Part shown: one piece after another, positions 4,426 to 8,493 of the stretch
How the letters are laid out: each line of letters begins with the position of its first letter
How positions within the stretch are numbered: position 1 is the first letter of the stretch
Assembly (NCBI GenBank): GCA_041666545.1
Contig: JBAYGS010000004.1
Span: forward strand, 8,610-72,609
Source of the DNA: Minisyncoccota bacterium
GTDB lineage: Bacteria > Patescibacteriota > Minisyncoccia > Phycocordibacterales > JBAYGS01
DNA: 64,000 nt
Reading direction: 5' to 3'
Notes under the pieces: model-generated
Database searches by the model: none
Told to the model about the DNA's origin: nothing
Seen by the model: only the letters and a program-made list of their open reading frames with translations
Position numbers and translations under genes: made by a program

Positions 4426-4735
4426 AGACCCCACGCTCTAAGTAGGGCGGGGGTCTTTGACAATTTGAAGTAATAAGAAGATATGAGAATCGCCCAAGTA
4501 AAGTCTTGGGCTAATGCAAGTCTCATAATGTAATTTTAAAGTGATTGCTAGGATAGATGAACAATTTAACTTTTAGCAGGTTAAGTAGAAACATTCTTTG
4601 TTTTGTTCCGTTCTAAACTTAAAAAAATTAATCAAAACTTTCGCAAGAGAGTTTTTCTAATTTTTATTAAGAGTTTGATCCTAGCTCAGGATGAACGCTG
4701 GCGGCGTGGATAAGGCATGCAAGTCTAGGGGGTCC

Positions 4736-4872
4736 GGCACTTTGCGCGGAAGTGGCAAAGCGAATGACCAATAACCAAGAGACAAATTCCAAACTAGAGA
4801 GTGTTTGGTTATTGTTTATTGGAATTTGGAATTTCACTTTGTTTGCTTATGAGCAAAGTGCTGGATCACCGG
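4736..4872 (+). repeat. Hairpin-ended expansion element (IVS) within the 16S V1-V2 region, copy 1
   Basis: Starts ggcactttgcgcggaagtggcaaagcg (self-complementary hairpin) and ends cactttgtttgcttatgagcaaagtgctgg (hairpin). Same termini as the element at 6497-6642. Confidence 0.55.
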
Positions 4873-5525
4873 CAGACGAGGTAGTAATAAATAGGTACGA
4901 ACCTTCGAGTCAAGAATAGTCCGTCGAAAGACGGGGTAATCCTTGATAGTCCCTTCGGGGTAAAGATTTATCGCTCGATGATCGGCCTATTCAGTATCAG
5001 CTAGTTGGTAGGGTAATGGCCTACCAAGGCAATGACGCTTAGGGGGGGTGAGAGCCTGTTCCCCACCGATGGAACTGAGATACGGTCCATACACCTACGG
5101 GTGGCCGCAGCCGAGAATATTCGACAATGGGCGAAAGCTTGATCGAGCGACGCCGCGTGATTGATGAAGTCCTTCGGGACGTAAAGATCTTTTATGAGGG
5201 AGGAAGTTTATTGACGTTACCTCATGAATAAGGGGTTGCTAAACTCGTGCCAGCAGCAGCGGTAATACGAGTGCCCCAAGCGTTATCCGGAATCACTGGG
5301 CGTAAAGGGTGTGTAGGCGGTAGTGTTAGTCTTGTGTCAAATTCTTCGGCTTAACCGGGGTACGCACGGGAAACGGCACTGCTAGAGGATGCGAGGGGTC
5401 TCTGGAACTCATGGTGTAGCGGTGAAATGCGTTGATATCATGGGGAACACCAAAAGCGAAGGCAAGAGACTGGAGCACTCCTGACGCTGAAACACGAAAG
5501 CGTGGGTAGCGAATGGGATTAGATA

Positions 5526-6138
5526 AACGCTCGCCTTAGCTTTTTAAAAACGCGCATAAAGTCCTGGTGGACTTTTGCTATACTCGGCCTCACGGCCTGC
5601 GCTGTTTTTAAAAAGCTAAGGCTCGCTCCTGTGAAAAGGAGAAGAGAAAGAGCAAATGTCTCATCTACTAGTGATAGTAGAAAGCAAATTTGGCTATATG
5701 CTGGAAACTCCGTTGTATCCGACAATACCGAAAGGTAAAAATTTGTCGGTGCGGACAATCAGCAGGAAACTTGTATGTGTTGAGAAGGGGATTCGGATTG
5801 TAATCTTTGGGAAGGCAACAGCGTAAGCCTCTGTATGTGGACAGAGAAACTGCGCACTACCCCAAGGCTCTTACCTTCTGGGACAGCGTGTTAAAGCGCA
5901 CTCCCTGTGTGACCAGTCAGTGTGATTGGTCACACCTCCTTCCCAGCACATATTAAGGATCCTCAGAGACTAAACGCCAGACCCCTGAATTTCAGGGTGA
6001 AGATATAGTCCGTTCTGCATAGCGATATGTAGAGACAAGCAGAAATGACTTGTCCTAGTAATTTTTAATTTTAAATTGTAATTTTTCATTTTGAGATTTA
6101 CATTTTAATTTTTAATCGTTACTTCGTAACAATTAAGA
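5526..6138 (+). mobile_element. ORF-less ~610 bp insertion (putative self-splicing intron/IVS) in the 16S between GGATTAGATA and CCCCAGTAGTCC (E. coli ~position 790)
   Basis: The conserved block ATTAGATACCCTGGTAGTCC is split by 613 bp. No protein-like ORF. Contains an AT-rich tract at 6061-6120. Confidence 0.5.
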
Positions 6139-6496
6139 CCCCAGTAGTCCACGCCCTAAACGATCTTCTCTGGTTTTTCGGAGTATCGACCCTCTGAGAG
6201 ACGAAGCTAACGCGTTAAGAGAAGCGCCTGGGTAGTACGGCCGCAAGGCTAAAACTCAAAGGAATAGACGGGGACTTGCACAAGCGGTGGATCATGTGGT
6301 TCAATTCGACGGTAAACGAAAAACCTTACCAGGGTTAGAAATCTAATCGAAGGCTAGCAGAAACGTTAGTCGTCTCACAAGGACGGTTAGACAGGTGTTG
6401 CATGGCCGTCGTCAGTTCGTGGTTTGAACTGTTCCCTTCAGTGGGGTAACGAACGCAACCCTCGTTGCCTGTTATATTTGTCAGGCGAGACTGCCC

Positions 6497-6642
6497 AGCA
6501 CTTTGCGCGGAAGCGCAAAGTGAGTTGAAAGTGAAAAGTTTATAAAGTCTGTAAAGTAAAGCAAAGAGCTCTGCTTTATGAACTTTCAACTTTATAACTT
6601 TATAAACTCACTTTGTTTGTTTGCGAACAAAGTGCTGGGAGG
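6497..6642 (+). repeat. Hairpin-ended expansion element (IVS) within the 16S (~E. coli 1130 region), copy 2
   Basis: Starts cagcactttgcgcggaagcgcaaagtg and ends cactttgtttgtttgcgaacaaagtgctggg. Inserted between gactgccc and ggaggaaggcgaggatgacg. Confidence 0.55.
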
Positions 6643-6863
6643 AAGGCGAGGATGACGCCAGGTCAGCATGGCCCTTTGATACCCTGGGCCACACACGTGA
6701 TACAATGCCGATTACAACGGGATGCGACGGGGAAACCCTGAGCCAACCCTAAGAAAAATCGGCCAAGTTCGGATTGAGGTCTGCAACTCGACCTCATGAA
6801 GCTGGAATCGCTAGTAATCACAGGTCAGCTATACTGTGGTGAATACGTTCTCAAGTCTTGTAC

Positions 6864-8151
6864 TCGGGTCGCCATGCGATCGAGTACGCTAGTTGGTGCT
6901 CCAGTTGTAATTTTTGGGAAGTTAAAAAACCCGCCGATAAGCGGGATGTGTACGGGCTTGGAATAAATTATCCCAGCCGTCTGTTCACGGCAGGTTGAAG
7001 AAAGCTCTCGCAGAGATAGTTTGGCAGGGAAATGAGACATATCACGGCCACCGGAACAGCGATACAGATGATGGTCAGAACGAGGAAAAAGGTTTCAGTT
7101 TTCGTAGTCCTCATAAGAATCCTCTCTGTCGCGATGGTATCTAATTTTAATAGAATTGTCAAGCAAGGCTTGACCCCAAAAATTACAACTGGAAAATCCA
7201 ACCAAGACAATTCACAGTGTCTTGAAGCGAAATACTAGTCCCGACGCCGTGAGGGGTCGGGATGAAGGAGTAAAGTAGCATTTCTTAGCTTGAATGCCAG
7301 TTATGGCGCATAACAGAGGTTATCCTGCGAGTACATGGAGAAGCCTACTGTGTTTTAAAAACTGTTATGCGTATCGTGGCATCGAGATGAGAAGAAACAG
7401 TGTATTCGGTCACCGTGGGAGGTCTTGCATTTTCCTCGTTGTGTTATACACACCGAGAAATTGTATTAGTAATGATACAATCATGAGATGCAAGAAGTCA
7501 GCAGAGTTCGTAGTACCAAAAGGAAAGATGCTCGGTTTAACCCCAAGCTAGAACTTCCTCTTGGGAAGGAACAAATTCAAAGGAAAAAGTTACATCCTCA
7601 ATATGTTGCAGGATTTATTGATGGAGAAGGATCTTTTTCGATTAGTATTGGAAAGCACAAAACTTTGCGTAGAGGTTTCGAAATTCGTCCGGAATTTGAA
7701 ATAGAATTACGGAAGGACGATCAAGAAATCTTGGAGCGAATACTTGTGACTATCGGAATTGGAAAAATTTACGATTGCTCATACGAGCGATACGGATGGT
7801 ATCCACATGCGAAGTACAAAATTATGAGCATCTGGGACCTGAAAGAATATTTATTTCCATTTCTCGATAAAAATCCATTACAAGCGAAAAAGAAAAAATC
7901 CTATCTACTTTTTAGGCAAATAGTTTTGATGATTTGCGCTAAGAAACATTTGTCTGATAGGGGATTTAACAAAATCGTAAAACTTCGCGACGAGCTTCGC
8001 GCTCTAGGGAAGAAAGCTAAAACTTATCATGGCAAGGTAAGTGAATTCGAGAAAAAAATCGAATAAGCAACCTTTGAAAAACGCGAGGGTGCGGGAAAAC
8101 CGCTTGCCCCGTGTTGAAGAGAAGTGTAATGGCAACATTATACAACATCAA
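6864..8151 (+). mobile_element. Group I-type intron in the 16S (near E. coli position ~1390, between CTTGTAC and ACCGCCCGTCA) carrying a homing endonuclease gene
   Basis: ~1.29 kb inserted into the universally conserved GTACACACCGCCCGTC block. Contains the LAGLIDADG ORF at 7488-8066. Confidence 0.7.
7488..8066 (+). CDS. LAGLIDADG-family homing endonuclease (intron-encoded)
   Basis: 192 aa. Canonical motif LHPQYVAGFIDGEGSFSISI. Basic C-terminus. Located inside the rRNA intron. Confidence 0.8.
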   Translation: MQEVSRVRSTKRKDARFNPKLELPLGKEQIQRKKLHPQYVAGFIDGEGSFSISIGKHKTLRRGFEIRPEFEIELRKDDQEILERILVTIGIGKIYDCSYERYGWYPHAKYKIMSIWDLKEYLFPFLDKNPLQAKKKKSYLLFRQIVLMICAKKHLSDRGFNKIVKLRDELRALGKKAKTYHGKVSEFEKKIE

Positions 8152-8493
8152 ATACCGCCCGTCAACTCAAGGGAGTTGGGAGCGCCCGAAATCTCACGCA
8201 AGTGGGCCTAAGGCGAGCTCAATGACAGGGAGTAAGTCGTAACAAGGCACGGGTAGCGGAAGCTGCTCGTGGATTATTTCAAATTGAACAACGTTGAATG
8301 CCTATTTATTTATGCATCTCAACTTAATCGGTCGTTATCGCGTATTCCATATGGATACACGATGTCCGCCTGAGGGGCTAATTTCAGGGGATAGTGATTC
8401 GATATCCTAAAAGTGAATCTGACATCGGGAAAGACTGGACGCGACACGAAAGTGTCTCGAGGAACGGAACAAAATAAAGCATGTTTCAAAAGC

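Follow-up and report, generated by a model that had tools for sequence, protein, structure and literature searches.

How a ribosomal RNA (rRNA) gene for 16S comes to measure 3.6 kb, when only about 1.45 kb remains once four insertions are taken out, is the question raised by contig JBAYGS010000004.1 of a Minisyncoccota bacterium (GenBank assembly GCA_041666545.1), of which we analyzed a stretch of 64,000 nucleotides (positions 8,610 to 72,609 of the forward strand), hereafter the window; positions are window coordinates unless a locus (L001 etc.) is named. Our best explanation, to which we give as a whole a probability of roughly 0.8, is that this is the single, unlinked 16S rRNA gene of a Parcubacteria-like bacterium of the Candidate Phyla Radiation (CPR), and that it carries four independent elements, one of which has itself been colonized. 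The gene, its exons, and the four insertions (ins1 to ins4) are located as follows.

4663–8284, plus strand: 16S rRNA gene (RF00177, 1133.8 and 78.8 bits; alignment to E. coli rrsB)
4663–4736, 4862–5524, 6138–6497, 6638–6863, and 8152–8284, plus strand: 16S exons, ~1.45 kb when joined
4737–4861, plus strand: ins1, a predicted 125-nt rod hairpin replacing the helix 6 tetraloop (minimum free energy, MFE, −64.8 kcal/mol; z = −9.2)
5525–6137, plus strand: ins2, assigned as a group I intron of 613 nt without an open reading frame (ORF), after E. coli U793 (RF00028, 74 bits)
6498–6637, plus strand: ins3, a predicted 140-nt rod hairpin extending helix 40 (MFE −67 kcal/mol; z = −9.3)
6864–8151, plus strand: ins4, assigned as a IIC-like group II intron of 1288 nt at E. 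coli 1395/1396 (RF02001, RF01998)

The whole-window Rfam scan matched the model of bacterial small-subunit rRNA (RF00177) at 4663–6890, above its gathering threshold, and a separate scan of 6800–8400 recovered the 3′ piece of the gene at 8074–8284. Without the four insertions, a sequence of 1450 nt is obtained that is collinear with positions 8–1542 of E. coli rrsB at 68% identity, with the universal blocks complete and in order, which bears out the claim of the first-pass annotation of a ~3.6-kb gene split at four places. In E. coli numbering, the insertions occupy the tip of helix 6, the position after U793, the tip of helix 40, and 1395/1396. The boundaries proposed earlier were correct within a few bases and were refined here: ins1 had been placed at 4736–4872, ins2 at 5526–6138 (equivalent to ours, given an A/A ambiguity), ins3 at 6497–6642, and ins4 exactly where we place it. 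Both ins1 and ins2 are missing exactly at the window junctions in related 16S genes, which were fetched via the endonuclease encoded in ins4.

Regarding linkage and host, no 23S gene was found by the Rfam scan within the 64-kb window, in agreement with the earlier description of the 16S gene as unlinked. The 3′ end of the gene (8268–8284) reads GGAUUAUUUCAAAU and lacks the CCUCC anti-Shine–Dalgarno sequence, which fits the earlier suggestion of a genome poor in Shine–Dalgarno motifs; CCUCC is likewise missing from the 3′ ends of relatives, GGAAUAUUUC and GGAAUAAUUC (L001 6750–6825; L006 1762–1837), and the loss of this sequence in a subgroup of Parcubacteria has already been published (PMC9297842). 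Upstream of the 16S gene, scanning of 10 window proteins identified a sugar transferase (Bac_transf), SecD, and SecF; the order Bac_transf-SecD-SecF-16S is the same in L004, and L001 has SecD-SecF-16S. A total of 725 homologues of the endonuclease, with identities reaching 94%, were retrieved; the few with a named source belong mostly to Ca. Taylorbacteria, Kaiserbacteria, Microgenomates, and Patescibacteria, with one labelled archaeal. Judged by these homologues and by the gene order common to relatives, the host is a member of CPR/Patescibacteria. The only tRNA in the window, tRNA-Ile(GAU), is located at 9795–9869, 1.5 kb downstream of the 16S gene. This is the usual rRNA-spacer tRNA; here it follows an ORF of 219 aa without a Pfam match, and pyruvate kinase, not a 23S gene, lies downstream of it.

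The 613-nt ins2 had been described as ORF-less and left without a class. The first part stands, as its ORFs gave no significant Pfam domain and no sign of a decayed endonuclease gene, and the second is superseded by a full-length model match to RF00028 at 5597–6032, with 74 bits against a cutoff of 50; on this match, ins2 is assigned as a canonical group I intron. Cutting out 5525–6137 restores exactly the sequence of the intronless relatives, GGATTAGATACCCC(A/G)GTAGTCC, a junction present in L001, L004, and L008, and the exon end is therefore placed at U5524 and the intron end at G6137; the uninterrupted site in relatives is GGATTAGATACCCCAGTAGTCC. In the MFE fold of the whole intron, which uses no covariation, a predicted P1 pairs 5521–5525 (AGAU|A) with UGUCU at ~5655–5659, about 130 nt downstream, with a U·G wobble of U5524 at the 5′ splice site, and P2, capped by GUGA, follows directly after P1. 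The loop of P1 contains a 25-bp near-perfect hairpin (5533–5556 with 5598–5622), P6 bears a 164-nt extension, and the 3′ tail of 105 nt (6033–6137) is AT-rich. The canonical core, the U·G wobble, and the terminal G suggest that ins2 would leave the precursor by guanosine-initiated self-splicing.

Two observations concern the periphery of this intron. The hairpin in the P1 loop (5529–5627) looks like a further insertion of the helix-tip style, here within a ribozyme. Additionally, the tail at 6033–6137 resembles the helix 40 insert of L006 (208–359), with up to 86% identity over 35 nt in several overlapping matches, and an 11-mer of the tail, TTGTAATTTTT, is also found within the inverted repeat of the cassette described below; this likeness may be a low-complexity coincidence or reflect a shared AT-rich module.

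As reported in the first-pass annotation, the last insertion is situated within GTAC|A(C/T)ACCGCCCGTC and bears an intact single-motif LAGLIDADG endonuclease gene. Although LAGLIDADG genes usually go with group I introns, this insertion is of group II: the group II domain I–IV models RF02001 and RF01998 matched 7243–7408 with 43.4 bits (cutoff 32) and 7458–7571 with 50.8 bits (cutoff 35), respectively. The elements recognized within ins4 are listed here.

6860–6887, plus strand: predicted 5′ splice-site hairpin and "5′ linker" (fold; near-invariant in seven loci)
7331–7335, plus strand: candidate exon-binding site 1 (EBS1), GUACA, in a domain I terminal loop within the RF02001 alignment
7488–8066, plus strand: LAGLIDADG homing endonuclease ORF, 192 aa, single motif (PF00961, E = 4.2e-20)
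8080–8115, plus strand: domain V (fold; 100% conserved in seven loci with five distinct sequences)
8124–8143, plus strand: domain VI-like hairpin of 8 bp with a GCAA (GNRA) loop

An intron of the same kind at the same site is present in L001–L007, and the four relatives looked up via the endonuclease carry it there together with an endonuclease that is 84–94% identical. In the predicted fold, the first 20 intron nucleotides and the last four exon bases form a hairpin in which exon GUAC and intron UC pair with GAGUAC (6882–6887) around GGUCGC-CAU-GCGAUC, and the sequence GUACG at 6884–6888, 20 nt inside the intron, stands in the place expected for GUGYG. The candidate EBS1 is complementary to intron-binding site 1 (IBS1), UGUAC (6859–6863), at the end of the 5′ exon; its loop, CCUGCGAGUACAUGGAG, is invariant in five loci, and since both sides are invariant, this putative pairing carries no covariation signal. 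A domain I hairpin, CAAGACA/UGUCUUG, covaries among the loci, as read from the sequences. In domain V, the loop is GAAAA, the triad is CGC with its G in a G·U wobble, and two unpaired bases (UU) bulge from the 3′ strand. Compensatory changes affect four of the eight pairs of domain VI among five loci. The endonuclease ORF opens inside the J2/3–domain III region and continues through domain IV; PF00961 (LAGLIDADG_1, residues 41–146) is its sole domain, no reverse transcriptase is encoded, and the motif GFIDGEGSF is invariant in 11 homologues. The nearest solved structures are those of the fungal mitochondrial I-LtrI/I-SmaMI/I-OnuI type, and the predicted intronless target site is CTTGTACATACCGCCCGTC.

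These features assign ins4 to the published rns-1396/16IS9 family, class IIC-like. Group II introns in CPR 16S genes have been reported only at about position 1400, with a LAGLIDADG gene in 39 of 53 and a reverse transcriptase in none (PMC11270868). The rns-1396 family of Liu et al. (2026; PMC13190283) is built on a IIC backbone that lacks EBS2; its domain IV encodes a single-motif endonuclease, and every member has a 5′ linker, situated between the exon and the conserved 5′ motif. The window intron is like it in each of these respects as well as in the 16S site, the CGC triad, the short domain I, and the kinship of its endonuclease to fungal mitochondrial enzymes. In contrast, Liu et al. found the family only in Thiotrichaceae, whereas the host here is a CPR bacterium, as in Tsurumaki 2024, and a loop of domain I in the window copy additionally holds the cassette of 292 bp. 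The likeness to the Thiomargarita intron (Salman et al. 2012) is one at the level of the family description. A IIC-like intron of this kind would remove itself by ribozyme catalysis, with the 5′ exon probably chosen by the 5-bp IBS1–EBS1 pairing and the 20-nt linker looped out. The endonuclease, acting as a homodimer, would cut intronless 16S alleles and lead to DNA homing, not retrohoming; this behavior is taken from the family literature, in which a CPR relative, I-ShaI, is reported as active (PMC11270868), and we infer a similar activity here.

Several points weigh against a textbook group II assignment. The intron starts with UCGGG and has no GUGYG at the exon junction. The 3′ boundary, placed at 8151|8152 by keeping the 16S length (GUAC|AUACCGCCCGUC), gives a 3′ end of ..CAUCAA, that is, AA and not AY. 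No bulged branch A is evident in the domain VI stem; unpaired A residues are found at 8144–8145, 7–8 nt before the 3′ splice site thus placed. Finally, RF00029 scored only 15.8 bits against a cutoff of 40 (E = 0.32 in a 111-nt search), and despite this sub-threshold score, its alignment puts the domain V triad and bulge where expected. We also observed, on the minus strand at 8165–8137, a strong promoter-like match (TTGACG, 17-nt spacer, TATAAT; 11 of 12 positions) that extends over the beginning of the final 16S exon as well as the domain VI hairpin; since the universal CCGUCAA block, read as its reverse complement, supplies the −35 hexamer, the match may be fortuitous.

Two features had escaped the first-pass annotation, namely, a cassette nested antisense within ins4, and sequence ends common to ins1 and ins3. 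The cassette is delimited as follows.

6901–7192, minus strand: cassette of 292 bp, seated in the loop of a domain I hairpin of ins4 (inverted repeats 6901–6919 and 7174–7192)

The closing stem of the cassette is a 19-bp inverted repeat, and the host loop, GUUGG..CCAAC, measures only 5–20 nt in five loci representing three distinct introns (L001/L002, L004/L005, and L006). On the minus strand, a promoter-like sequence (TTGACA at 7162–7157, a 17-nt spacer, and TACCAT at 7139–7134) precedes an ORF encoding a hydrophobic peptide of 48 aa, MRTTKTETFFLVLTIICIAVPVAVICLISLPNYLCESFLQPAVNRRLG, with its ATG at 7114 and a stop codon ending at 6968, followed by a terminator-like GC-rich hairpin, CCCGCTTATCGGCGGG (6945–6930), and TTTTTT, the terminator as a whole being placed at 6945–6920. 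Repeat pattern scans revealed five distinct versions of the cassette, including that of the window, in two rRNA contexts: two Ca. Taylorbacteria lineages (L003 = L013 = L016; L011 = L015) have it in the intron loop that it occupies in the window, and two other CPR contigs (L010 and L012 = L014) have it in the 5′ domain of 23S, at the E. coli helix 10 position beside helix 9. The repeats and a GTCAAG..CTTGACA palindrome are common to the five versions, and the cargo differs in each, comprising hydrophobic ORFs of 48, 66, and 67 aa (GRAVY 0.97–1.57), a basic ORF of 47 aa, or none in a 105-bp version. Every ORF-bearing version has TTGACA with a TAnnnT box at 16–17 nt and an ORF that fills most of the interval, and all five have their own terminator-like hairpin with a T-run, antisense and beside the repeat.

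The architecture of the cassette and its recurrence in two unrelated RNA hosts are solid at the level of sequence, and the cassette is most likely a selfish element of helix tips that carries a small gene as passenger. Such an element would have colonized a dispensable domain I loop, carrying a predicted promoter, a small ORF, and a terminator in antisense. Miniature inverted-repeat transposable elements (MITEs) and mobile insertion cassettes are bounded by inverted repeats, lack a transposase, and bear passenger genes. The cassette is like MITEs in its 19–20-bp terminal inverted repeats, its variable cargo, the existence of an empty version, and its presence at unrelated sites in different genomes; unlike MITEs, it shows no visible target-site duplication (no consistent direct repeat flanks any of the cassette insertions), and its known sites are all RNA hairpin tips in rRNA genes or an intron. 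When compared to the classical intervening sequences (IVSs) of rRNA, which are considered with ins1 and ins3 below, the cassette has a similar closing stem, and two of its versions lie in the 23S helix 9/10 region. In contrast to those elements, its ORF is antisense with its own predicted promoter and terminator, the peptide is hydrophobic and not S23p, and one of the host sites is a ribozyme loop, not rRNA. We found no description of an antisense cassette of this kind in the papers that we consulted.

The most serious competing explanation, which we regard as possible and on balance doubt, is that the cassette is a structured RNA extension only, its antisense promoter, ORF, and terminator being fortuitous or decayed and no protein being made. 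The cargo ORFs have no homologues among 5.8 billion proteins and no Pfam match at E ≤ 0.01; the cargo is not conserved, with one version encoding a basic peptide and one encoding nothing; and the TTGACA box is also part of the palindrome GTCAAG..CTTGAC and may be structural, all of which count against a passenger gene. Moreover, G·U pairs in the closing stem of two lineages, which pair only in rRNA-sense RNA, point to selection on the rRNA-sense helix, and with a 16S rRNA lacking the anti-Shine–Dalgarno sequence, the GAGAGGA upstream of the ATG means little. What a purely structural extension leaves unexplained is the regularity of the antisense signals: terminator-like hairpins that differ in sequence and are followed by a T-run are always antisense (five of five versions), TTGACA and TAnnnT are spaced by 16–17 nt in all four ORF-bearing versions, and the interval is filled by an ORF of 47–67 codons beginning at the first ATG downstream of the predicted start. 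By our own estimate, the joint chance of these features in random sequence is ~1e-5.

On the side of the cassette searches, RNAalifold applied to the GTCAAG..CTTGAC hairpin returned six invariant pairs and no compensatory ones, and covariation at a seventh pair, noted by eye, was not supported by the alignment of the tool. A protein search with an 80-aa antisense ORF, whose peptide is encoded by the inverted repeat and might have caught other cassettes, gave no scoring match. The one match of the cassette repeat in a scan of viral contigs (L017) was set aside as chance, having no second arm and a GC-rich coding context, and an Rfam search of the cassette alone at E ≤ 10 returned noise, the isrK match corresponding only to the terminator hairpin.

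Should the passenger gene be expressed, a type I toxin-like role for its peptide is a hypothesis. As described in PMC2887945 and PMC8309996, type I toxin–antitoxin systems resemble the cassette in the hydrophobic single- or double-pass peptide of <70 aa, in the promoter and terminator of its own, and in the full overlap by an abundant antisense RNA. Here, the part of the antisense RNA would fall to the rRNA precursor or intron and not to a dedicated small RNA; the cassette has no sequence similarity to known toxins, and three of the four cargo ORFs are hydrophobic and one basic, all of them necessarily overlapped by the sense rRNA precursor. A further parallel is the cis-antisense RNA of Helicobacter pylori, which likewise arises from a promoter antisense to the rRNA precursor and whose duplex is cleaved by RNase III, altering rRNA processing (PMC6582327); that RNA lies in the 23S–5S leader and is non-coding, while the cassette lies inside an insertion element and has an ORF. 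Taken to its full extent, this line of thought would make the cassette the representative of an undescribed class of helix-tip mobile elements of CPR rRNA genes and introns, with the rRNA precursor as antitoxin to an antisense passenger peptide, a proposal that we consider speculative and rather improbable. Under that proposal, the inverted repeats would form the closing stem in the rRNA-sense transcript around an exchangeable passenger gene, most often hydrophobic, and the passenger mRNA, being fully complementary to the abundant rRNA or intron precursor, would be degraded as a duplex by RNase III. The peptide would then be expressed in inverse relation to rRNA transcription; alternatively, the insertion would hold its host in a state of addiction.

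The two short insertions turned out to be of another kind. That four insertions exist, as first described, is correct, but ins1 and ins3 are helix-tip hairpins and not recognizable introns, since the Rfam intron models gave no match to either. Both are predicted to fold into near-continuous rods of ~60–70 bp, and both are stem-loops with terminal inverted repeats standing in place of a helix loop, the arrangement that identifies an IVS; they are accordingly classed by sequence and fold as IVS-type hairpins. In a classical IVS, a small loop is replaced by a stem-loop with inverted repeats that RNase III cuts without religation (PMC4990558). The known examples, in 23S helices 9, 25, and 45 of Salmonella, Leptospira, and Coxiella, are like ins1 and ins3 in the replaced terminal loop and the inverted repeats; the rRNA genes that harbor them are single-copy and belong to reduced genomes, and some of these elements carry an ORF (S23p). 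Unlike these 23S elements, ins1 and ins3 sit in 16S, in helices 6 and 40. A CPR survey suspected an IVS nature for its own short uncharacterized inserts (PMC11270868).

Regarding their distribution, ins1 is missing from L001 and L004, and in L001, helix 6 ends there in a GCAA tetraloop. The helix 40 site, for its part, bears sequence-unrelated rods of ~80–170 nt in all relatives that cover it (L001, L003, L004, and L006), and ins3 is 100% identical in L008 and L009. The two window hairpins share their ends: at the 5′ side, GCACTTTGCGCGGAAG, the first 16 nt are identical and 27 nt are 89% identical, and at the 3′ side, CACTTTGTTTG..CAAAGTGCTGG, identity reaches 86–87% over 28–30 nt, while the middles are unalignable. 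The 3′ end gave 0 matches in a contig scan of the genomes of 185,579 species, which therefore hold no close relatives of these hairpins, and similar ends were not found in the fetched loci, whose hairpins at the site are unrelated. In L003 (Ca. Taylorbacteria, MHSL01000032), the helix 6 and helix 40 inserts (1775–1925 and 4926–5098) are 75.4% identical over 138 nt. Because the window pair shares its ends and the L003 pair is 75% identical, the sequences suggest that the hairpins were copied or recombined between sites within a genome. A point that does not fit is that the L003 hairpins share their middles and not their ends, so conserved ends are not a general processing requirement. The short AT-rich motifs CAAATTCCAAAC and TTTGGTTATTG are common to ins1 of the window and the L003 inserts.

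RNase III, which is specific to double strands, would most likely cut ins1 and ins3 from the precursor without religation, or they would otherwise be absent from the mature rRNA, as analogy and the published CPR transcript data suggest. An alternative, which we judge unlikely, is that both are expansion segments retained in the mature 16S rRNA as extensions of surface helices. The helix tips involved are solvent-exposed and the host helices are intact, and the differing helix 40 hairpins of every covering relative recall eukaryote-like expansion segments. However, CPR rRNA insertions are removed from transcripts, according to Brown et al. (2015) as summarized in PMC11270868, near-perfect duplexes of 60–70 bp are ideal RNase III substrates, and the fast sequence turnover between relatives argues against a ribosomal role.

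Whether all four elements belong to one gene is a separate question, as the assemblies offer conflicting joins. A JGI contig (L020) equals window 932–5207 at 99.95% identity and confirms SecF beside the 5′ part of the 16S gene with ins1. An ENA contig of 115 kb (L008; ERZ27249449 k141_1363904) is 100% identical to window 6234–11066, where it ends, and an NCBI contig (L009) covers window 6214–8975 with mismatches at 6220–6224 and none from 6225 on; ins3 and ins4, cassette included, are confirmed by both contigs. Against the integrity of the window, L008 joins these to a different 16S 5′ half (L008 870–1651 versus window 4662–6233; 85.6% identity) that has neither ins1 nor the group I intron and follows another upstream gene, the mismatches at the switch clustering at 6136–6233. 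In addition, 5208–6213, with the group I intron, is seen in the window only, and exact look-ups of two intron ORFs found nothing. As L008 joins a different 5′ half at 6136–6233, one of the two assemblies is chimeric or recombinant at this conserved 16S block, which we regard as an assembly branch point at which the window's join is favored.

That the window itself is the chimera, the gene up to ~6233 (with ins1 and ins2) and its remainder (with ins3 and ins4) coming from different co-occurring populations, is very unlikely in our estimation. The identity of L008 from 6234 onward beside a different 5′ half and upstream gene, and the break of L009 at 6214, could be read in that way; nevertheless, ins1 and ins3, which lie on opposite sides of the branch point, have distinctive ends in common that neither the rest of the window nor the fetched loci contain, the gene order agrees with L004 and, from SecD on, with L001, and L020 independently links SecF to the 16S 5′ part with ins1. 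For these three reasons, the join in L008 is the likelier chimera. Least credible of all is that ins1 and ins3 are true introns of an unrecognized class, for example removed by a dedicated endonuclease and an RtcB-type ligase with the shared ends as recognition element, since the 16 identical 5′ nucleotides and the 86–87% similar 3′ ends at two unrelated sites, and a repeated CACUUUG/CAAAGUG that permits local hairpins or a long rod, are set against the lack of an apparent bulge-helix-bulge in the predicted rods and of an Rfam match, the ability of helix tips to function without religation in classical IVSs (PMC4990558), and ends that differ between the two L003 sites. An intron of the archaeal bulge-helix-bulge type was also considered and discarded, the rods having no 3-nt bulges around a 4-bp helix.

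With the four-element gene as the favored reading, the window 16S illustrates, in a rich but otherwise ordinary form, a published CPR habit, as the first-pass annotation had recognized (Brown 2015 as cited; Tsurumaki 2024, PMC11270868). According to Tsurumaki 2024 (PMC11270868), insertions of at least 100 bp are present in 48% of CPR 16S genes, several per gene are common, group I introns occupy several sites, group II-like introns mostly carry a single-domain LAGLIDADG_1 gene, and short (<200 bp) uncharacterized inserts lie in less conserved regions. The main text and supplement legends of that survey make no mention of paralogous short inserts within one gene or of an antisense cassette nested in a group II intron. 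The present analysis settles the classes of two insertions, ins2 being of group I and ins4 of IIC-like group II, and its further contribution consists of the paralogous ends of the hairpins and the family of antisense cassettes. The finding as stated adds a member, not a principle. In practice, universal primers placed in the 1392 region or near 785–805 miss such 16S genes, which also break metagenome assemblies, as illustrated by the conflicting contigs L008 and L009. The paralogous hairpins at two helices, seen in two genomes, point to intragenomic copying of IVSs. If the cassette were expressed, a selfish element would be concealing a gene within rRNA in a novel manner, and, in organisms that possess very few systems of regulation, the synthesis of rRNA might be tied to a peptide acting on membranes.

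Other observations concern the introns of the related loci. Extra hairpins of 40–58 nt are present at another domain I position, after GAAGGGGUAAA, in L006 (~720–780) and L015 (~2740–2780), and L011 and L015 have an additional hairpin beside the cassette; the peripheral loops of rns-1396-type introns seem prone to such additions. Close to the 3′ end of their 16S genes, L004 and L005 bear a group I intron that includes a LAGLIDADG_3 gene (L004 6744–7504), and the 5′ half of the L003 gene (2482–2846 and 2846–4570) contains a group I intron and two LAGLIDADG_2 ORFs. The intron content varies freely between close lineages.

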